Part shown: in pieces, positions 12,132 to 60,446 of the stretch | How positions within the stretch are numbered: position 1 is the first letter of the stretch | Layout of the letters: every line of letters begins with the position of its first letter | IMG/VR virus record: IMGVR_UViG_3300045953_000067 | Strand: one strand, 5' to 3' | Origin: an uncultured virus (IMG/VR IMGVR_UViG_3300045953_000067) | Taxonomy: Duplodnaviria; Heunggongvirae; Uroviricota; Caudoviricetes | Length of the DNA: 64,000 nucleotides | Made by a program: the position numbers and the translations under genes | Notes under the pieces: generated by a model | Told to the model about the DNA's origin: nothing | The model's input: the letters and a program-made list of their open reading frames with translations, nothing else | Database searches by the model: none

Positions 12132-13547
12132 TTACCTGCCGAGCCAGAACCCGTACTTTCGACGGTTTAGTTCGCGGTTGTTCTGAAGTTCCCCGAACGA
12201 CTGCCACCGCTGCAGCGCGTTGGTCCTCAGCGACGTCAGCGACGAGACTCGCGTCCAGGTTCCGCAGTCGCTATCGCTACTGAAGCCGACGTCAGTCGCC
12301 GAGATGACGACGGCCTGCTGGCCAGCGCCAGAGACGAAGTCGTTCGCGATGATGCTGTCGAGTGTGCCTCGGAAGTCGCGGAGCCGCTCCCAGTAGCAGC
12401 CTGCTTGCGCGTTGGTCGTGTAGATCCCGGGTGTGATTTGACCGCCCACCAACCACATGCCCCCCGGGATGACTGTTTGCAGGCCCTTCAGCGGTGTGTT
12501 GAACCAGGTCCCGCAGTCCGCGTCCGTCTGGAACGCAAGATCCGTCGGCAAGATGTCGACGATCGTCTGCGCCGCGGCGAATCCTATGAAGTTATTGGCG
12601 ATGATGTCGTTCAGGCTGCCGCTCAAGCCCGACTGACGCTCCCAGTAACAACCGCTCGCAGGGATGCTGTAGTACCGGCCCGCGGCGATCTCGCTGCCCA
12701 CTCGCCATTGACCCGCGCCAAACGTCGTATTCGGGCCGCCGTTCGCGACGGTGAAAAACCGGCTGCCGAGGCCCTGCGTGTTGCCTCGGTTGTCGGTGGC
12801 CACCCAGAAGATCGAATGCACGCCATTAGTGAGTTTCGTCGTGTCGATCTGGAAGATGCCGATCGCGCCACTGGTGTTTGCGAGGCCAGGAAAGAGCCCG
12901 GCCACGTCCGGTCGAAAGTGACCATACGATGGATTCCCACGCGGGATGCTATCGATGTAGACCGTGATGGTTGAGCCGTTGGTCGGAATCATCCCCGGTT
13001 GCGGCGTCAAGGCCCAACCGAAGTTGATGATCGTTCCGCTGACGGTCTGGCCTTGCGCAGGCGTATCGATTGTGCCGAATGGCAGGCGACTAGTGCTGTT
13101 GGTCGCCGTCACCGTCCGTTGGCCCAGTGTGACGGAGTTGCCTGAGTTGTCCGTGGCGATCGCGTGCAGGCGGAACGTGCCGTTGCCGCCGTTGGGCAGG
13201 AAGTTCGAGAGGAGCATGTAGCCCCACCCGGCCCGTGTGCTATTCGGATAGGTCGGGAACTTTGCTGCGACGTCCGGCCTGGCGCCGGCAACGAACGTCG
13301 CATCGCCGACAAAGACTAGAAGACCTGACACTTCGCCAACAACCGGATCTCGATACACCTTGACCGACACGATCCCGGAGTTGTCGAGCGCCCATCCCGT
13401 GACGGCGACCTCCCCCGCTATCCCTACGCCGTCCGAAGGTGAATCGAACGAGCCGAAGGGTGGGCCCACGGCTTGACCGTGTGTCGTGGTGTTGATGAGC
13501 ACGAGGGACACGAGGAGGAGCATCCACCCGACCAGGCGACGGAGCAT
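12132..13547 (-). CDS. Exported moron protein: two Ig-like (PFGxxDxP..GWAL) repeats plus two GCYWER repeats
   Basis: Signal peptide, internal duplications, lower GC, absent from B. Confidence 0.8.
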   Translation of the reverse strand: MLRRLVGWMLLLVSLVLINTTTHGQAVGPPFGSFDSPSDGVGIAGEVAVTGWALDNSGIVSVKVYRDPVVGEVSGLLVFVGDATFVAGARPDVAAKFPTYPNSTRAGWGYMLLSNFLPNGGNGTFRLHAIATDNSGNSVTLGQRTVTATNSTSRLPFGTIDTPAQGQTVSGTIINFGWALTPQPGMIPTNGSTITVYIDSIPRGNPSYGHFRPDVAGLFPGLANTSGAIGIFQIDTTKLTNGVHSIFWVATDNRGNTQGLGSRFFTVANGGPNTTFGAGQWRVGSEIAAGRYYSIPASGCYWERQSGLSGSLNDIIANNFIGFAAAQTIVDILPTDLAFQTDADCGTWFNTPLKGLQTVIPGGMWLVGGQITPGIYTTNAQAGCYWERLRDFRGTLDSIIANDFVSGAGQQAVVISATDVGFSSDSDCGTWTRVSSLTSLRTNALQRWQSFGELQNNRELNRRKYGFWLGR

Positions 13548-13621
13548 CGCGGTCCTTCCCTTTCAGGGTTACTGTTTCCGCCGCCGCGTGCGCTCCAGAC
13601 CTCACGGTCGCGCGTAGGTCG

Positions 13622-13900
13622 TCACCGTAGAAGTTCCTGCACGCCTCTAGCGAACACGTATGGCACGATGGCAATGAGACACGCCACGGCGGCGCCGGCA
13701 GCCTCCTGCGGGGCCCCATTGGCGAGCGTGACGGTGACGAACCCAAACAGCCCGGCGACGAGCGCCGCGAGCATGGAGACCACCCAGAAAATTTTCGCGA
13801 CCACTGGGTTCCGTTGCTGCGCGACCACGTAGGCGGCGCTCGGCGCGGCGCTCTGCCAACCCGGCGCGGGTGTATGTGCCGGTTCTTCGATGGTTGTCAT
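13622..13900 (-). CDS. Two-TM membrane protein
   Basis: Hydrophobic helices, APQEAAGAA..IVPYVFAR. Confidence 0.7.
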   Translation of the reverse strand: MTTIEEPAHTPAPGWQSAAPSAAYVVAQQRNPVVAKIFWVVSMLAALVAGLFGFVTVTLANGAPQEAAGAAVACLIAIVPYVFARGVQELLR

Positions 13901-13913
13901 CGCGTGCCCCCCT

Positions 13914-14129
13914 CTACTTCAGTGACGCGAGGCGTCGGCGGATCGCGCAATCGATCATGACTTCGACCACTCGCGCAGCTCCGGGATCCAGTCGTTCAAG
14001 ATGCGCGGCCTTTGAGGCCAGTGAGGACTGCGGCGTTGGTAACTTCGCGCGCAGCATTTCAAGCTTTCGCCCCGTGAGTTCGTCGAGCCTCCTGCCCTGG
14101 TTTGAGTACGCGAGCCGCAACGTCATCAC
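13914..14129 (-). CDS. Small conserved protein (LRLxYSN family) (A)
   Basis: Ortholog at 58391-58621. Confidence 0.7.
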   Translation of the reverse strand: MMTLRLAYSNQGRRLDELTGRKLEMLRAKLPTPQSSLASKAAHLERLDPGAARVVEVMIDCAIRRRLASLK

Positions 14130-14261
14130 CGTCGCCTCCGCGCTGCGCCTCAGAGCGCGCAGCAGCAGAGCTTCGGCGATCGGTATGACAGGTCAGGTCC
14201 ATCGCTACCCGTGGTGCGGCGGCCGGTGTCACTACCTCAACCGGTAGTGTCGACGCGACAC

Positions 14262-14579
14262 TCACCGTTTCTTGCGTCGCATCTTGACGGCGGCGCCCAT
14301 CATGTCACCCATCGCGAGCGACCAGTCGCAGACCCATTCCTTGTCCGGTTCTTCCGGCTGCGCCGCCACGATGCCGACCAGCGCGCACCCGGCGTAGTAC
14401 TCGTCGAGCGTGATCTGCAGCGTCGCTGGGACCGCGGGCGGACGGGGGTTGACCAAGAGCGTGCGCCGTCGGGATCGTTCCCATCCTGAGATTGGCGTTT
14501 CATTACGATCGCCGTCTCCACGGGCCGGTGCGCGGCGTCGAACGATGCCAGGCGTGCGGGCCTTTGATGGGCGTTTCAT
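14262..14579 (-). CDS. Conserved phage protein (LDEYYAGCAL motif) (A)
   Basis: Ortholog at 58758-59081; coupled to repressor stop. Confidence 0.75.
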   Translation of the reverse strand: MKRPSKARTPGIVRRRAPARGDGDRNETPISGWERSRRRTLLVNPRPPAVPATLQITLDEYYAGCALVGIVAAQPEEPDKEWVCDWSLAMGDMMGAAVKMRRKKR

Positions 14580-14799
14580 CGGTGGCCCGCCTTTCGCTTG
14601 GGATGTCCAGGCCGCTGTCCGCGATCCTTTCGATGGCTCGCATCTTCTCGGGGAACAGGAGCGCGAGTTCCTGGAGCTTGTCCCCCAAAGCTCTCTTCGG
14701 CTTCTCGGGCGAAGTGGTCGAGAGCGTCCTTGACGACGTTGCCGAATCCTCGAAGGTCGTTGCTAAAGGCTGTGAGTGTACGAGCCGGATCCTGGTCAC
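14503..14799 (-). CDS. Candidate ORF nested in repressor 3' end (A)
   Basis: GGGAGG RBS plus GTG conserved in B; similarity to 13914-14129. Confidence 0.55.
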   Translation of the reverse strand: MTRIRLVHSQPLATTFEDSATSSRTLSTTSPEKPKRALGDKLQELALLFPEKMRAIERIADSGLDIPSERRATDETPIKGPHAWHRSTPRTGPWRRRS

Positions 14800-15166
14800 C
14801 GATGGCCCCTCCCTTGGTTCGGTCTTGATGAGCTGGAGGGGTCTCTTTTACACCAGAGCCAGGCTGATCGCGTATGGTTTTTTTACTGGGAATTTTTCCG
14901 CGCCGCAAGATGTCGTAGTCCGCATCGACGCCAACAACAAGATCCTCGATGGTCGCGCGAAGCCGTCTCGCTAGTTTCAGCAGCGTCTCCCCTTCCGGCA
15001 CGCCGCCCTTTTCGTTGATCCAATTGCTGAACATCGACGGGGTGACGTCGAGTTCGGCAGCGATCTCCTTTTTCTTCTTTCCTGGGAACCGGGTAGAACA
15101 GAGAGCCTTCAGGTTGCGGCCGAACGCCGCTGGGTCAAGCACACCGGGACGATAGCCCGTCTCCAT
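14576..15166 (-). CDS. CI-like XRE-HTH repressor (A), no S24 peptidase domain
   Basis: EIAAELDVTPSMFSNWIN HTH; divergent from cro. Confidence 0.85.
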   Translation of the reverse strand: METGYRPGVLDPAAFGRNLKALCSTRFPGKKKKEIAAELDVTPSMFSNWINEKGGVPEGETLLKLARRLRATIEDLVVGVDADYDILRRGKIPSKKTIRDQPGSGVKETPPAHQDRTKGGAIGDQDPARTLTAFSNDLRGFGNVVKDALDHFAREAEESFGGQAPGTRAPVPREDASHRKDRGQRPGHPKRKAGHR

Positions 15167-15240
15167 ATTTTTTCGCAAGCAAGAATTTTCCGTAAGCACA
15201 AGACCCGACACCACTTGCGCCTGACCGCAATATTGCTCCG

Positions 15241-15304
15241 TGTGTTCAAGCACAAATTTATCTTGCAACACATGAACTAGGGGTGTAGCTTGTGTTTCGA
15301 CGCA
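15241..15304 (+). promoter_or_regulatory. PR-like promoter (TTGCAA-17-TAGCTT) with TGTG..CACA-type operator candidates
   Basis: -35 at 15263, -10 at 15286; tgtgttcaagcaca at 15241. Confidence 0.6.
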
Positions 15305-15571
15305 ATGCCGAAGCCGCTCAGTCCGGAACAAATCGACGCGATGCGAGCCGTCCCGCTCGGAGAAATGCCGAACAAGCTCCGGATCGCGATTGCGCTCGCG
15401 AAGGTGAAGCAGGCGGAGGTCTGCGAGGAGACCGGCCTGACGCCTTCGATGGTCAGTAACTTCGTGCTCGGCAAATACACGACGTTGACCATCGACACGG
15501 CGCGGAAGCTCGCGGAGTTCTTCGGTTGCCAGATTGAGGATTTGTTCCCGGCGCGTGAGGCCGTCGCCTGA
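15305..15571 (+). CDS. Cro-like HTH protein (A)
   Basis: QAEVCEETGLTPSMVSNF..LAEFFGCQIEDLF. Confidence 0.88.
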   Translation: MPKPLSPEQIDAMRAVPLGEMPNKLRIAIALAKVKQAEVCEETGLTPSMVSNFVLGKYTTLTIDTARKLAEFFGCQIEDLFPAREAVA

Positions 15572-15661
15572 TGTCGTGTTCATCATGCCGACGAGTCTCG
15601 CCGACGACCGTGTCTCTCGTGAACTAGGCAGTTCTCAAGAGAGGAAAAAGCGAAGGCGCGT

Positions 15662-16015
15662 ATGACTTTCACACTCTGTCCGCCGTCGTGGGCCGCGGCC
15701 CTCCGTCGCGAGGATCCGGTCGTCCGGTCGATGGCGGATCGCTTCGACGAGATGCTCCGGATCTGCGACGTCAGCCGGGAGAAAGCGGCGCTCTGGATGG
15801 AGATCAGCCGGGCGCAGCTGGATCAGCAGCTCGCGGGCGACGGACATATCTCGCTCTACAGGCTCGCGATGCTCCCCGAGGATTGTGTCTCGACGCTCGC
15901 GGCCCTCGTGCTGCGCGATATGGGTCTCCCCCGGTTCCTCTGCGGGGCGGAGAACGCGCTCGACGCGGCGGATCGCGTGGCTGGCCGCCGGAAGATGGCG
16001 AGGGCCTCGCTGTGA
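15662..16015 (+). CDS. CII-like regulator (A)
   Basis: Position after cro; HTH-like EKAALWMEISRAQLDQQL. Confidence 0.55.
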   Translation: MTFTLCPPSWAAALRREDPVVRSMADRFDEMLRICDVSREKAALWMEISRAQLDQQLAGDGHISLYRLAMLPEDCVSTLAALVLRDMGLPRFLCGAENALDAADRVAGRRKMARASL

Positions 16016-16137
16016 TCACGGTGCTCTGGGTGTCGTGCGTGGCGATCGGGTCGGTGCTCGCGGTGCGCTGGGTGGTTCGGCAACCGTGGCGGCGGTACTG
16101 GCACCTCTTCCTAATCGCGCTGTTCGAGGAGCGGTAG
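16012..16137 (+). CDS. Small membrane peptide
   Basis: GTGA coupling; TM plus basic tail. Confidence 0.5.
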   Translation: MITVLWVSCVAIGSVLAVRWVVRQPWRRYWHLFLIALFEER

Positions 16138-16395
16138 ATGTTCTGGATTGAATTGCTGGTCTGGTCGTTCGGCTCGGTCTACGCGGTCCGCGGGTTGTAC
16201 CGCGCGACGTCCGGGCGCGGGCGCGTGCTCTGGCGCACGGCGCAGGTGCTCTGCTGCCTGGGGCTGCTCGGCCTCGCGACGGCGGCGGGCGCGGATGTGA
16301 TCATCGGCGATCCCGATCAAGCTCGCTGCGCGCTCTGCGCGACGCTCGAGCCGTACTCCTTCTGGTGGTTCTTCAACGCGTGCTTCGCCTGCTGA
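16138..16395 (+). CDS. Exported Cys-x14-Cys peptide precursor (A)
   Basis: TM, signal-like segment, AGA|D, conserved CxxLEPxSFxWxFxxCF. Confidence 0.75.
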   Translation: MFWIELLVWSFGSVYAVRGLYRATSGRGRVLWRTAQVLCCLGLLGLATAAGADVIIGDPDQARCALCATLEPYSFWWFFNACFAC

Positions 16396-16408: not shown

Positions 16409-16684
16409 GTGTCGACCTGGCGCCTTCTGTCGATCGGAGAGACGGCCGCGAAGCTCGGGCGGTCCGAGCGTGAAGTGCGCGGCATGGTCTCACGCGGAGA
16501 GTTTCCGGCGCCGTGCGTGAAGCGGATCGGGCGCCGGATCTTCCTGCGCGAAGTCGCTGTCGAGGCGTGGCTCTCCGAAGACGACATGCACCCGCCGCCG
16601 TCGCAGGCCAGCGCGTTCGAGGAAGCCGAGCGGATCGCGGAGTGCGCCCGGCTCGGGATCGAACCGGATCACGTGTTTAGTTGA
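16409..16684 (+). CDS. Excisionase-like HTH_17 protein (A)
   Basis: LLSIGETAAKLG..RIGRRIF..VEAWL. Confidence 0.8.
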   Translation: MSTWRLLSIGETAAKLGRSEREVRGMVSRGEFPAPCVKRIGRRIFLREVAVEAWLSEDDMHPPPSQASAFEEAERIAECARLGIEPDHVFS

Positions 16685-16692
16685 GGCTCCCG

Positions 16693-16764
16693 ATGAAGAA
16701 GTTGATCCCGTGGATCTTCGTTGTCGCGTCGGCCGGCTTTCTCGCGGGGGTGTTCACGTCATGA
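16693..16764 (+). CDS. 23-aa single-TM microprotein (A)
   Basis: MKKLIPWIFVVASAGFLAGVFTS; ortholog at 61008-61082. Confidence 0.65.
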   Translation: MKKLIPWIFVVASAGFLAGVFTS

Positions 16765-17189
16765 GAGAGAACCCGATCGACCCGCCTACTCCACCCGGAC
16801 CCGAGACGGATCCCGGCTACTACGAGCGGCCGTTTCTCCCGGAGCTTCCGCTCTGGGTGTGGCTCGTCTGGGGGCTCATCGTCGGCGCGTCGCTCGCGGT
16901 CCTGATCTACCTCGGCGTCGAGACGGCGAGGGCGCAGGAGGCGCCGGCGCGGCCGATGAAGTCCTGGCAACTCGGATGGTTGCCCGGGATCGACAACGCG
17001 GACACCGAGAACATGGACCGGCGCTTCAGGGTGGACGTGTACGACACCGAGGGCGTCTGTCTCTATGTCGTGAGCGGCTATCAGCGAACAGAGCCGATCA
17101 GGTTGGACGTTCCGATCGCTCTCGGAATGACGTCGGCGATCGCGGCCGTCCCGAAGACGCAACTCCCGAAAGGCGCGGGCTGTCAGTGA
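16761..17189 (+). CDS. Membrane-anchored/exported protein
   Basis: TM, ARA|Q, two Cys. Confidence 0.6.
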   Translation: MRENPIDPPTPPGPETDPGYYERPFLPELPLWVWLVWGLIVGASLAVLIYLGVETARAQEAPARPMKSWQLGWLPGIDNADTENMDRRFRVDVYDTEGVCLYVVSGYQRTEPIRLDVPIALGMTSAIAAVPKTQLPKGAGCQ

Positions 17190-56892: not shown

Positions 56893-58164
56893 TCAATTGA
56901 CCCTCCTCCGCGGCGTCTTCCTGATCGCGTGTTTTCCTGAGTGTTTTTGCGTGGGTCGCGAGTGGGGTACCTCCGAAAGTACCTCCGGCCGCCGGCCGAA
57001 CGCCTCGCGCATGATCGTGTCGAGTTTGAGCCGAGCGGCGAGCTTTCGCAACACGGGGCGCTGATGCGCGGGCCGGAGGTGCGTGTATCGCTGCGTCGTC
57101 TCGATGTCCTGGCCCATCGTCTCGGCGCGGAGCTTTTCGTTCAGGCTCGGGACTTCCGCGAGGAGCGTCGCGCAGGAGTGGCGGATCGTGTGAAACGTGA
57201 CGCCGTCCTCGACGTCGCGGCCGTAGGTCAGGCCGGCGGACTTCGCGGCTTCGCGGACGCTCGCCCGGATCGACGTGACCGGCTCGCCGCGGTAGGTCAC
57301 GACCCACGGACCCCGCTGTTCGTCTCGAGCGGCTTTCAGGATCGTCCGGAGCGCCGGCACGATCGGGATCACGAGCGGCGCTCCGTGACGATCCTGTTCC
57401 TTATGGTCGGCGACCGTGATGAACCGGAGGCCGGCGTCGAGGTCGCGGTCCCATCGAAGGGCGAGGACGTTCGCGAGGCGCAACTTCGGGGCGAGACTCG
57501 CGATCGACATCGCAAGCTGCGCGTGGAGCGGGGCCTCCCGGAGCCAGCGACGGAGCTCGGCGGGCGTGACCGTGACGGTGCGGCCCTTCGTGCGCGGCCG
57601 CTCGAGGTCGGCGAAGGGGTTCGTCTGGACGCCGGTCTGTTTCACGTACTGCGGGAGCTTCGCGACCCGATACATGCGAGACAAGACGGACAGATAGTGC
57701 TTTTTCGTCTGGTTCCCGATCGGGCGGTTTCCGACGCGGGTCCGCCGGGCGTCCATCCAGGCTTCGAACTTCAGGATCCAGGACGGATCCCGGATCGGGT
57801 CGGCGAGTGTCAGGTCGTGGTACGGCTCGCCCTCGACGGGCGGGTTCTCGGCGTTCGGTGGGGGCTTCTCGCCCCAGAACCGGAGGACGACGCGGAGCAA
57901 CTCCTCGACGCGGTCGATCCGGCGGACGCGGCCCTTCTGTTTCAGGTGTCGGAGGTAGATCGTCGACCAATCCGTGAAGCTCGGCGCGTGCTCCGGGAGG
58001 ACGTCGAGCCCGCCGGCGAGCCGGGAGATCCGGCGTTGCTCGGTCGCCTCCCACTCCTTCGCGTCGACCTCGGTCCGCTGTCCCGTGTTCCCTTGGTACC
58101 GCTGGCCGAGGTGATAGAACCGGTAGCGGTAGGTCGCACGGTCGCCGGAGCGCCAGACGGTCAT
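56893..58164 (-). CDS. int: Tyrosine integrase (B)
   Basis: R..K..HTIRH..Y; ortholog of A integrase. Confidence 0.92.
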   Translation of the reverse strand: MTVWRSGDRATYRYRFYHLGQRYQGNTGQRTEVDAKEWEATEQRRISRLAGGLDVLPEHAPSFTDWSTIYLRHLKQKGRVRRIDRVEELLRVVLRFWGEKPPPNAENPPVEGEPYHDLTLADPIRDPSWILKFEAWMDARRTRVGNRPIGNQTKKHYLSVLSRMYRVAKLPQYVKQTGVQTNPFADLERPRTKGRTVTVTPAELRRWLREAPLHAQLAMSIASLAPKLRLANVLALRWDRDLDAGLRFITVADHKEQDRHGAPLVIPIVPALRTILKAARDEQRGPWVVTYRGEPVTSIRASVREAAKSAGLTYGRDVEDGVTFHTIRHSCATLLAEVPSLNEKLRAETMGQDIETTQRYTHLRPAHQRPVLRKLAARLKLDTIMREAFGRRPEVLSEVPHSRPTQKHSGKHAIRKTPRRRVN

Positions 58165-58394
58165 CCGCGGCCGAAACTCGCGAGGGCGGCCATCAGGAAA
58201 AACGCGATCGCGCCGATCGCGAGTAGGGCGGGGATCGACGCCAGTGTCCACTTGAAGATGAAACTGACCATCGACCCGAAGGGCATGTCGAGGTCGACGA
58301 CGACGACCCGCTGAGCGCCGGCCGTCCTGAGCGCGGCGCTCTGGTCGGCGAGGAGATCGCGGCCGCTCTTTTGCACGGTGTCTATTCCTGTCAT
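58161..58394 (-). CDS. Small membrane protein
   Basis: VVDLDMPFGSMV..KW..ASIP. Confidence 0.7.
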   Translation of the reverse strand: MTGIDTVQKSGRDLLADQSAALRTAGAQRVVVVDLDMPFGSMVSFIFKWTLASIPALLAIGAIAFFLMAALASFGRG

Positions 58395-58621
58395 CCGTCG
58401 CCTCCTCCTGGTGGTGACGCGAGCCGCCTCCGGATCGCGCCGTCGATCATGACTTCGAACACGCGCGCCGCGCGCGGGTCCAAGCGTTCAAGCTGCGCGG
58501 CCTTCGCCGCCAGCACGGAAGGCGCCGAGAGTTCCGCGCGTAGCATCTCGAACTTGCCGGCTGGGAGCTCGGCGAGTCTCCTGCTCGCCTTCGGGTTGGA
58601 GTACACGAGCCGCAGTGTCAT
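58391..58621 (-). CDS. Small conserved protein (LRLVYSN) (B)
   Basis: Ortholog of 13914-14129. Confidence 0.7.
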   Translation of the reverse strand: MTLRLVYSNPKASRRLAELPAGKFEMLRAELSAPSVLAAKAAQLERLDPRAARVFEVMIDGAIRRRLASPPGGGDG

Positions 58622-58757: not shown

Positions 58758-59081
58758 TCATCGTTTCCGACGGCGACGCTTGACGGCGGCGCCCATCATG
58801 TCGCCGACGTCGAGCGACCAGTCGCAGACCCATTTCTTGTCGGGCTCCTCCGGTTGCGCGGCGACGATCCCGACGAGGGCGCATCCGGCGTAATACTCAT
58901 CGAGGCCTATGTCCAGCGTCGCCGGCACCGACGGCGCGCGGGGGTTGATGAACAGCGTGCGGAGCGCGGCGAGCCGACGCGCGCGCTCCCACCCGGACAT
59001 GGGCTTACGTTCGGCGGCGCCACGGGCCGCCACGCGGCGTCGAGCGGTACCAGGCGTGCGGGCCTTTCTCGGCGGCTTCAT
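58758..59081 (-). CDS. Conserved phage protein (B)
   Basis: Ortholog of 14262-14579. Confidence 0.75.
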   Translation of the reverse strand: MKPPRKARTPGTARRRVAARGAAERKPMSGWERARRLAALRTLFINPRAPSVPATLDIGLDEYYAGCALVGIVAAQPEEPDKKWVCDWSLDVGDMMGAAVKRRRRKR

Positions 59082-59301
59082 CGCGGCCCCGCCTTCCGCT
59101 TGGGATGCCCAGGCTGCTGTCCGCGATCCTTTCGATGGCTCGCATCCTCTCCGGAATCAGGAGTGCGATCTCTTGGAGCTTGTCGCCCAAAGACCTGGTC
59201 GGCCTCGTCGGCGAAGTGGTCGAGGGCGTCCTTGACGGTGTTGGCAAATCCTCTGAGGTCGTGGCTAAAGGCTGCGAGTGTACGAGCCGGAGTCTCTGCA
59301 C
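59005..59301 (-). CDS. Candidate ORF nested in repressor 3' end (B)
   Basis: Same length (98 aa), RBS and start as in A. Confidence 0.55.
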   Translation of the reverse strand: MQRLRLVHSQPLATTSEDLPTPSRTPSTTSPTRPTRSLGDKLQEIALLIPERMRAIERIADSSLGIPSGRRGRDEAAEKGPHAWYRSTPRGGPWRRRT

Positions 59302-59629
59302 CGTTGGCCCCTCCCGTGGTTCGGTCCTGTAGATAAGTCGGAGGGGTATCTTTTACCTCATCTGTGGCGTTTTTGCTGGAAATTTTGCCACGCCACAACC
59401 TGTCGTAGTCGGCGTCCTCACCGGCCACAAGTTCTTCGATCCGGCATGGGATGCCCTTGGCAAACATTAGGAGCGTGTCCAGGCGCACGGTCCTGTTCCG
59501 TCCGTGCTCCCAGTCGCTCAGTTGCTGCGCTGAAATATTCAGGTGTCTGGCGAAATCCGCTGGCTTGGTGTGGCCGGCGGCGATCCGCAGCCGTTCGATG
59601 TTCTTCCCGATCTGCTCTCCTGGGCGCAT
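59078..59629 (-). CDS. CI-like XRE repressor (B)
   Basis: DFARHLNISAQQLSDWEHG HTH. Confidence 0.85.
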   Translation of the reverse strand: MRPGEQIGKNIERLRIAAGHTKPADFARHLNISAQQLSDWEHGRNRTVRLDTLLMFAKGIPCRIEELVAGEDADYDRLWRGKISSKNATDEVKDTPPTYLQDRTTGGANGAETPARTLAAFSHDLRGFANTVKDALDHFADEADQVFGRQAPRDRTPDSGEDASHRKDRGQQPGHPKRKAGPR

Positions 59630-59639
59630 TCGAGCCGTC

Positions 59640-59668
59640 ACTATATCGGACCGAATAGCTACGCGCAA
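59640..59668 (-). promoter_or_regulatory. Repressor promoter TTGCGC-17-TATAGT (near-leaderless)
   Basis: -10 lies 10 nt before ATG at 59629. Confidence 0.6.
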
Positions 59669-59732
59669 ACGCGTAAGGTCTTGATGCATCGCGACTTCGG
59701 TCGCAACCGAAGTACCCGCTGAAACTTTCGGC

Positions 59733-59762
59733 TTGACACGTATACGGTTACAGCCGTAGTAT
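59733..59762 (+). promoter_or_regulatory. PR-like promoter TTGACA-18-TAGTAT with palindromic operator
   Basis: tacgg-ttacag-ccgta at 59743-59758. Confidence 0.7.
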
Positions 59763-59776
59763 TCGCGTTGTTCCGT

Positions 59777-60031
59777 ATGACGGCCAAGCAGATCAAAGCC
59801 CTCCGCAGCATCCCTGTTGGCGAGACCGGCAATCGCCTCGCTGACGCGTTCCAGATCAGCGGTCTTCCACAGATGGCCTGCGTCAGGAGGACCAGGTTCA
59901 CGGCGCAGTACGTCAGCGACGTAAAGAACGGGCGCTTCCGGGACATCTCTGTCGAGAACGCGCGGGAGTTCGCGTCGTTCTTCGGCTGTCAGATTGAGGA
60001 CTTGTTCCCGGCGCGTGAGGCGGTCGCCTGA
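59777..60031 (+). CDS. Cro-like protein (B)
   Basis: HTH; C-terminus FFGCQIEDLFPAREAVA identical to A. Confidence 0.85.
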   Translation: MTAKQIKALRSIPVGETGNRLADAFQISGLPQMACVRRTRFTAQYVSDVKNGRFRDISVENAREFASFFGCQIEDLFPAREAVA

Positions 60032-60089
60032 TGTCGTGTTCATCATGGCGTCGAGTGTCGCCGGTATTCGGGATGGAAGGAAGTCCACG

Positions 60090-60446
60090 ATGAGGACTGC
60101 GCTCCTGTTCATGTGCGCGTTCGTGATCGTCCAGGTGGATCCCGACATCGTGTGGCGCGGCGCGCAACGGTGGCGCGCGGCGATCTATCGGGCGCTCTGG
60201 TCGATCGAAAAGCTCGCCATTCACTGCGGCGTCGACAAGTCGCAGCTCCGACGAGAGATCGACGAGGGCAGGCTCCCGATGAAGCGGATCGAGCAATTCC
60301 CTCCAGACGTTCGCGGCTGGCATTCGGTGCTGACGCTCGAAGAAGTCGGCGTGCCGGACGTGCTCCTTCGTGCGGAACCCGTGATCAAGATGGCGAAGAT
60401 GACGCTCGCTCCGATCAACCCGGAAGAGAAGAAGAGGCTCGCATGA
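60090..60446 (+). CDS. CII-like regulator (B)
   Basis: Position; EKLAIHCGVDKSQLRREI. Confidence 0.55.
   Translation: MRTALLFMCAFVIVQVDPDIVWRGAQRWRAAIYRALWSIEKLAIHCGVDKSQLRREIDEGRLPMKRIEQFPPDVRGWHSVLTLEEVGVPDVLLRAEPVIKMAKMTLAPINPEEKKRLA

Follow-up and report, generated by a model that had tools for sequence, protein, structure and literature searches.

Analysis of a 64,000-nucleotide stretch of DNA from an uncultured virus of the Caudoviricetes (IMG/VR record IMGVR_UViG_3300045953_000067; this whole stretch, positions 1-64000, is here called the window) indicates that an open reading frame (ORF) of 98 codons, located at 14503..14799 on the minus strand, is probably a real gene with a translation start of its own, written over the 3′ third of a phage repressor gene in the +1 frame; we put the probability of this reading at about 0.8. 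That the frame belongs to a genuine overlapping gene we consider very probable from the comparison of reading frames between loci given below. The window contains two related phage genomes in succession, hereafter phages A and B, as judged from 18 direct-repeat families with a spacing of 44.3-47.9 kb and 74-93% identity, and the nested ORF is found in both of them.

The repressor gene of phage A encodes a Cro/C1-type protein and spans 14576..15166 on the minus strand (196 codons from the ATG of METGY; the version of the gene caller, P0001, starts further upstream) within a full ORF of 14576-15586. That of phage B, also of the Cro/C1 type and on the minus strand, spans 59078..59629 (183 codons as called, P0002) within a full ORF of 59078-60148. 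The helix-turn-helix (HTH) domain of both proteins was assigned by Pfam, and that of phage A also by AlphaFold2. According to the ORF listing, the nested ORFs are 98 codons long in each phage (14503..14799 in A; 59005..59301 in B, minus strand) and start with GTG, preceded at a distance of 8 nt by the Shine-Dalgarno (SD) sequence GGGAGG, which is located at 14808..14813 in phage A (GTG at 14797-14799) and at 59310..59315 in phage B. The nested ORF of phage A overlaps the repressor ORF over 14576-14799 and the next ORF over 14503-14579, and is hence wholly covered by its neighbors; phage B is built alike. An initial annotation had claimed this arrangement for both phages, and it is indeed seen in the sequence and in the ORF lists. 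When read in the repressor frame, the SD sequences of A and B correspond to the glycine codons GGA GGG, and the GTG is formed with a GGT glycine codon; among the glycine codons of 18 long ORFs of the window, GGA and GGT are rare, at 8.3% and 4.2%, respectively. The two nested copies align gap-free, with 82% nucleotide identity (repeat family D6) and 74% protein identity. The gene callers' records for the window list the repressor only, and on other contigs they list the small gene only. The G+C content of the window is 62-70%, and since off-frame ORFs are common in G+C-rich DNA, the nested ORF by itself proves nothing.

The family of the nested protein and its genomic setting

A search for homologues of near-equal length, using the nested protein as query, gave no match. 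A phmmer search against 1.84 billion representatives yielded four hits at E<=1e-3. One of these, P0006 (82 amino acids, aa), has an N-terminal QLRLVHS, a Ser/Thr-rich linker and then RSLGDKLQLLAL...IERIVD (pairwise BLASTP E 7e-10 to the nested protein), and another, P0005 (85 aa), contains RSIGDKLQEIALVAPEKLRAIEAMAD followed by a second, diverged copy of that core (pairwise BLASTP E 7e-12 to the nested protein). The other two hits, P0003 and P0004, are long proteins (1077 and 998 aa) that were matched in 6 and 8 short stretches, respectively, and we assume these matches to be compositional. A profile search retrieved 25 clusters out of 5.8 billion, all of them of 44-105 aa, without a Pfam family and named at most 'hypothetical protein'. 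In an alignment of 32 rows (alignment A6) the residues G39, D40, K41, L42, Q43, A46, P50 and D61 are invariant, with S37, L38 and E57 nearly so, and the family core follows the pattern R-S-L-G-D-K-L-Q-x-L-A-x3-P-x6-E-x2-h-D. Family members are often built of a short hydrophobic/basic N-terminus (LRLVHS-like), a linker rich in Ser, Thr and Pro, and a two-helix core. An N-terminal motif of the form h-[RHQK]-h (RIRLVH, QLRLVH, PLHLAH, KLRL...) is present in 19 of the 32 rows; in phage A it is RIRLVHS, encoded at 14773..14793 on the minus strand. The conserved core of the phage A protein comprises residues 38-64, LGDKLQELALLFPEKMRAIERIADSGL (14608..14688, minus strand), and is delimited by the alignment, by the two helices of the AlphaFold2 model, and by the coding signal and substitution ratios given in the next section. 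Judged by its sequence, the nested gene is thus shown to belong to a rare, conserved and unnamed family of small proteins, here called the SLGDKLQ family.

The AlphaFold2 model of the nested protein, based on the 32-row alignment, has a mean predicted local distance difference test score (pLDDT) of 73, with values of 85-96 for residues 31-60; helices are predicted at residues 38-48 and 50-64, and the remainder is unstructured. A ribbon-helix-helix fold (a strand and two helices) was considered for this unit and rejected, because a disordered linker of 25-40 residues lies between strand and helices and some members have no strand. The nested protein matched no Pfam family at E<=1 and no PDB sequence at E<=10; its sole hit in PHROGs was phrog_8027 (E 0.49), its best score in the ESM Atlas was 0.84, and a wide fold search (VIA-align) returned generic helical hairpins with a best Z of 3.0. 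The lack of a match to a described antirepressor or small-regulator family leaves a distant relation possible.

Two members, P0005 and P0022, carry an internal duplication: the two-helix core is present once more in diverged form (…NKLHRILV.HP.AIHTIEALLDRLL), and this second copy is closer in pattern to a free-standing small gene of the window, described below, than the first copy is. The N-terminal motif of the family (QLRLVH, QIRLVF, QLRLIV) might resemble the bacterial sliding-clamp-binding hexapeptide QLxLxh, which lies near the N-terminus in some proteins; a Q as first residue of the motif is present in a minority of the A6 rows only.

Further loci were found with patterns of the nested frame and confirmed by tblastn in that frame. 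The family profile gave eight metagenome loci, five viral loci and one genome locus, the latter on a metagenome-assembled genome of the Vicinamibacterales (Acidobacteriota). Of these 14, 10 were distinct after removal of identical records, which together with phages A and B makes 12 loci. The initial claim of a dual-coding locus, made for two phages, now has strong support from 12 distinct loci and a family of 25 clusters. In nine of the 12 (A, B, L002, L003, L004, L015, L009, L010 and L011) the family ORF and a long ORF of the same strand overlap, the former being in the +1 frame of the latter in each case. In the other three (L005, L006 and L007) it is free-standing, ~50-100 nt past an HTH repressor gene, and the would-be repressor frame is closed by TGA or TAA at the junction, that is, at the point where, as described below, constraint passes from one frame to the other at the overlapped loci. 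A Cro/C1-type HTH was detected by Pfam in seven of the nine overlapping ORFs (weakly in L010) and in all three upstream genes of the free-standing loci. At every overlapped locus the nested RSLGDKLQ reads x-G/R-R/G-Q-A/T/V in the repressor frame, and this is followed by a variable tail rich in Arg, Pro and Ser.

The surroundings of these genes are typified by divergent Cro-like HTH genes (L009, L015, L010 and L005) and by integrases, of the tyrosine type in L009, L002 and phage B and of the serine type in L015 and L011. The downstream slot holds cargo that varies by locus: a Big_7 secreted protein, an HSDR_N-like protein or a lipoprotein-like ORF. With its constant position beside the repressor, and with variable genes further downstream, the nested gene invariably accompanies the repressor gene of the immunity region. 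In L009 (3122-3192) the tyrosine integrase ORF starts 70 nt before the nested stop, right at the repressor stop, and three genes thus meet in one short stretch. The overlapping ORF of L002 (2748-3170), 140 codons from stop to stop, has the usual C-terminal helix and LGRQ junction and no detectable HTH; this ORF could represent a degenerate repressor or one of another architecture.

Coding signal and constraint in the second frame

No stop codon is present in the +1 frame among the 687 codons of the overlaps, whereas before the nested start 69 of 1697 codons in this frame are stops (naive Poisson P 7e-13). Stops in the nested frame of homologues, which the initial annotation had named as evidence that would speak against a gene, are thus absent. 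When the repressor ORFs were shuffled among synonymous codons, the overlap stayed open at P 0.011-0.82 per locus, with a joint P of 1.6e-8 for eight lineages, these being the nine overlapped loci minus phage B, which is close kin of A. The nested frame is also open upstream of the junction at all nine overlapped loci, for 54, 55, 76, 49, 46, 63, 64, 52 and 88 codons; at the upstream stop rate the probability of this is about 1e-9 for the eight lineages, and this segment was not used in locus finding.

In agreement with these results, GGAGG is located 3-9 nt before an ATG or GTG of the nested frame in seven of the nine overlapped loci; from SD sequence and start, it is 36-54 codons downstream to the junction. 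The background for such a combination is 89 sites in 223,904 positions, true gene starts included, and the probability of finding it in at least six of eight lineages is ~5e-9. The repressor residues encoded at the SD sequence vary by locus (GG, LE, EEE, FGG, LEG, KED) while GGAGG persists. In addition, the nested ORFs correspond exactly to public gene calls in five loci, and the start also agrees in three of the four overlapped ones.

The pattern of substitutions differs between the frames. Over codons -3 to +27 around the junction, mean pairwise identity is 0.54 in the nested frame, 0.29 in the repressor frame and 0.31 in the third frame. The ratio of nonsynonymous to synonymous changes (pN/pS) over the core, calculated for the eight lineages, is 0.54 for the nested frame, 1.66 for the repressor frame and 1.11 for the third. 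For the 25 codons before the junction, which could be compared in four gap-free loci, the order is reversed, with 0.76 for the repressor frame, 1.01 for the nested and 1.39 for the third frame. Together these values show that constraint shifts from the repressor to the nested frame at a single junction; the frame-specific comparison over more homologues that had been proposed initially therefore gives the lower ratio over the core to the nested frame. Synonymous positions in the codons of RSLGDKLQ vary freely. The comparison of A with B alone, over 14580-14699, gave dN/dS values of 0.44 for the nested frame, 1.07 for the repressor frame and 2.03 for the third frame, based on 19 differences only.

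A codon-usage profile that includes the G+C content at third codon positions (GC3), trained on 18 long ORFs from the window, shows the same shift within phage A. At 14615-14690 the nested frame is positive (GC3 0.80-0.85; G+C content at second codon positions, GC2, 0.25-0.55) and the repressor frame strongly negative (GC3 0.25-0.55). The repressor-frame signal is positive over the HTH and again at ~14705-14750, before the switch to the nested frame. In phage B the same switch occurs at the corresponding place, but it is weaker.

The predicted structures fit together in a similar way. The AlphaFold2 model of the repressor (6 rows, mean pLDDT 62) has a confident HTH at residues 10-78, then a disordered linker and a single long helix at 127-160, predicted with low confidence, and no structure from residue 161. 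On the DNA this helix stops exactly where the nested helices (38-48 and 50-64) start, and the structured parts of each protein face unstructured parts encoded in the other frame: the C-terminal helix of the repressor lies over the nested linker, and the nested core lies over the repressor tail, which is basic and little conserved. The models thus reproduce what the initial annotation had described, namely helical segments that alternate between the two frames. In phage A the last 35 codons of the repressor, past the junction, form an Arg/Pro-rich tail, and the repressor tail opposite the nested core looks like a by-product.

The two repressors of the window matched only Cro/C1-type HTH families in Pfam at E<=1 and no Peptidase_S24, and the related ORFs, scanned at E<=0.01, likewise matched HTH families only, as had been expected from the initial claim that these repressors lack an S24 autocleavage domain. 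The proteins of A and B share 55% identity over 85% of their length, and the last 300 nt of their genes share 82% nucleotide identity. Their HTH halves (14800-15300 versus 59300-59700) are far more diverged than the 3′ parts, and the repressors look like mosaics in which different immunity specificities are placed on a common 3′ module. A homologue search with the repressor retrieved the window's own two proteins only, and a related-locus scan with it retrieved nothing.

Several points weigh against a separately translated gene. As the loci were found through the nested core, conservation of the core across them is partly by construction; the open frame, the upstream SD sequence with its start and the phmmer hits are free of this selection. 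The upstream stop density was derived from stop-to-stop ORFs, which possibly include some non-coding leader. A clear GGAGG is missing in two of the nine overlapped loci, L003 having GAGG and L004 nothing evident, so that the retention of ribosome-binding site and start, by which the initial annotation proposed to judge the gene, holds for seven loci and not for these two. The public call at L002 starts from a much later ATG and is 44 aa long. No Pfam HTH was detected in the overlapping ORF of L002 or L003 in the scan at E<=0.01; by eye, the L003 ORF has an HTH-like stretch as in L004. Four soil RNA libraries yielded contigs that are identical in sequence to the window and span 14375-15245 and the cro side; they lend the gene weak support, since DNA carry-over is possible and neither strand nor transcript ends are discernible. 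The RNA-library contigs leave 13656-14207 and 16416-17151 uncovered, and these gaps are not a sign of silence.

Possible roles and alternative explanations

If the nested gene is translated as proposed, ribosomes would start at its own SD sequence and GTG or ATG within the repressor coding sequence. Because it lies on the same strand and within that coding sequence, the nested gene is present on every mRNA that encodes the full repressor, and from this common mRNA the nested protein would be made in lysogens along with the repressor. Its helix-Pro-helix core may dock on a conserved partner, and in doing so could tune how active or how stable a repressor without an S24 self-cleavage domain is. 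The fixed linkage to several repressor sub-types, together with the absence of this domain, suggests a role in the lysogeny switch. From its position, we tentatively favor the possibility that the nested protein is an accessory factor of the repressor, either a co-factor or a modulator. Of the two roles in non-RecA induction that the initial annotation had suggested, antirepressor or co-regulator, a classical antirepressor that appears upon induction only fits poorly, because a gene on the repressor's own mRNA should be expressed in every situation in which the repressor is made. That the core is invariant in the face of very diverse repressors agrees better with a conserved host target than with direct binding to the repressor. 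A version that accommodates this, in which the core docks on a host machine (protease or RNA polymerase) and repressor and adaptor act as one unit of the switch for RecA-independent induction, seems to us unlikely as it stands. Were it true, a genetically inseparable pair would set the stability of the repressor, and the free-standing small paralogue would be a competing or backup copy.

Alternatively, the nested gene could be a real, lysogen-expressed cargo gene that acts not on the repressor but on a conserved component of the host or of an incoming phage, for instance in superinfection exclusion or defense; many genes of this kind are located on the repressor transcript. The core motif is invariant where the repressors are very diverse, the slot 3′ of the repressor holds variable cargo at these loci, and overlapping genes, one of which gives exclusion, are described beside the repressor of a Pseudomonas phage (PMC9936078). 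Nevertheless, the place at or inside the 3′ end of the repressor gene is kept in 12 of 12 loci while the cargo further downstream changes, which is a tighter linkage than is usual for cargo; moreover, the protein lacks a predicted transmembrane segment and is modeled as a soluble two-helix unit. We regard a cargo function as a possible but doubtful explanation.

In nine of nine overlapped loci, coding signal and conservation leave the repressor frame at a single point and continue in the +1 frame. This would also be expected if a programmed +1 ribosomal frameshift at the junction provided the repressor with a second C-terminus, the LGDKLQ two-helix unit, without there being a separate gene. 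The fused product would read as one helix plus two helices, and the junction sequence is TTT GGG GGA in phage A, with a run of five G, and TTT GGG CGA in phage B, the rare codon CGA being present in B and seven other loci. However, no nucleotide shift site is conserved beyond what the nested amino acids need: synonymous positions vary, and the G-run is present in phage A only. In addition, a frameshift would account neither for the nested frame being open for 46-88 codons upstream of the junction at all nine loci, with GGAGG and a start there in seven of them, nor for the conservation of the N-terminal motif in the nested frame, and free-standing members that have a start of their own occur at three loci and, in several cases, among the database proteins, the repressor frame being closed at the junction of those three loci. 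Frameshifting is therefore a very improbable source of the signal. A chance open frame, in which GGGAGG merely encodes Gly-Gly and A resembles B only because the repressor and the next gene are under constraint, would suit DNA of 62-70% G+C, where long off-frame ORFs are abundant, as well as the empty near-length homologue search and the weak frame statistics of A and B alone, but is on sequence grounds excluded for practical purposes by homologues of the nested frame, which exist as small proteins in their own right and at 10 loci besides A and B, by an open frame, SD sequence with start and frame-specific substitutions far beyond chance, and by a repressor frame that looks non-coding over the core.

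Neighboring genes and comparison with known systems

The minus-strand gene order common to phages A and B is Cro/C1-type HTH repressor, a gene of 105 or 107 codons, a small gene of 71 or 76 codons, and a small membrane protein. The gene next to the repressor in phage A (14262..14579, minus strand, 105 codons) belongs to no known family; start and repressor stop share the sequence ATGA, and over its first 25 codons the gene coincides with the tail of the nested ORF. The ORF listing places its counterpart in phage B, whose ATG likewise overlaps the repressor stop, at 58758..59081 on the minus strand (107 codons). Just past the nested stop (14460-14503), indels of 6 and 12 nt set A apart from B; these lengths are multiples of three, which fits coding by the basic, poorly conserved N-terminal region of the next gene. 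No related locus was retrieved from the viral, genome and metagenome collections when the next gene served as query.

The free-standing small gene lies at 13914..14129 on the minus strand in phage A (71 codons) and at 58391..58621 on the minus strand in phage B (76 codons). The initial annotation proposed that it is a paralogue of the nested gene; a likeness between the two is visible but weak; it is suggestive, and paralogy is not established by it. BLASTP gave no match between the nested and the free small protein. Using hhalign, the A/B pairs of the two proteins aligned over 57 columns from residue 1 of both, at E 1.1e-3, a probability of 21% and 28% identity, and the 32-row family profile aligned to the free pair over the core (E 2.9e-3, probability 11%). 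Shuffling gave p 0.02 for nested versus free, and 0.006 for the first 63 residues. When the hidden Markov model (HMM) of the family was applied to 2055 pieces from six-frame translation of the window and the loci, the free genes of A and B ranked first and fifth among the non-family pieces (E 0.76 and 1.9), and both aligned collinearly to HMM positions 4-64. No homologues of the free small gene beyond the window were found in the related-locus scan or with the family HMM on the loci. From these alignments the two small genes seem somewhat more probably kin than not, the free gene being a candidate distant paralogue.

On the other side of the repressor gene lies a divergent Cro-like HTH gene (15290..15571, plus strand; Pfam HTH_26 6.6e-11, HTH_3 3.7e-9). 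Downstream, phage A encodes a protein of 471 aa (12132-13547, minus strand) with a signal-peptide-like N-terminus and a Big_7 domain, which is probably lysogen-expressed cargo; phage B has a tyrosine integrase (56893-58251) at that place. The RNA-library contigs also span the Big_7 gene of phage A. No Rfam match was found in 13500-16000 at E<=1, and a promoter scan of 13500-15800 found no sigma-70-like site and three terminator-like sites, no more than in shuffled sequences. A blastn search of the region against the phage collection gave no match. A virus record of 47,974 bp with terminal repeats (G001) is identical to phage A across 13006-16299, and both repressor proteins are found on public contigs of up to 77,201 bp, so that phages A and B may be tandem prophages or a joined record.

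What is new here is a family of small proteins and a new site for a conserved gene overlap; the nested layout itself is already known. The SLGDKLQ motif occurs in no paper of the searched literature, which lies outside the subscription journals, and a non-exhaustive search of the same literature contained no description of a gene nested in a phage repressor gene. Overlapping genes are systematically missed by gene callers, and the present loci, a dozen in number, provide comparative evidence that the master regulator gene of lysogeny harbors a second gene in a group of uncultured soil phages, with a family defined by an unusually invariant motif. They also form a natural series from free-standing to fully overlapped, in which the origin of gene overlap can be studied, and may point to a further part of the switch between lysis and lysogeny where phage repressors lack a self-cleavage domain.

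The closest parallel in layout is Rz/Rz1 of phage lambda, in which a small gene with its own ribosome-binding site lies (almost) wholly inside a larger one, on the same strand and in the +1 frame, and the two encode lysis proteins that bind each other. In related phages, Rz/Rz1 pairs are embedded, partly overlapped or separate, and the nine overlapped and three separate loci described here form a similar series. Unlike Rz/Rz1, the larger gene here is an immunity repressor, and the nested product is a predicted soluble two-helix protein of no known family. The genes L of MS2 and E and K of phiX174 are overprinted genes, mostly for lysis, of very small genomes under size pressure. As in those phages, overprinting falls on a stretch in which the first protein can accommodate it, with disordered segments opposite structured ones, but the phages considered here have genomes of ~45-48 kb and the overlap lies in the lysogeny module.

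With respect to function, P1 Lxc, TP901-1 MOR and lambda CIII are small, largely helical lysis-lysogeny proteins of 50-100 aa without a DNA-binding domain of their own, and lambda CIII acts through a conserved amphipathic core on a conserved host protein. To our knowledge, none of the three is encoded inside a repressor gene. The comparison concerns a possible way of working only: the nested protein has no sequence or profile match to any described family, and membership is not claimed. In genomic context, the nearest case is that of olg1 and olg2 of Pseudomonas phage Fc02, which are alternate-frame overlapping ORFs on the lysogenic transcript beside the repressor, one of which gives superinfection exclusion; they are described as lying upstream of the repressor and as overlapping each other rather than the repressor (PMC9936078).

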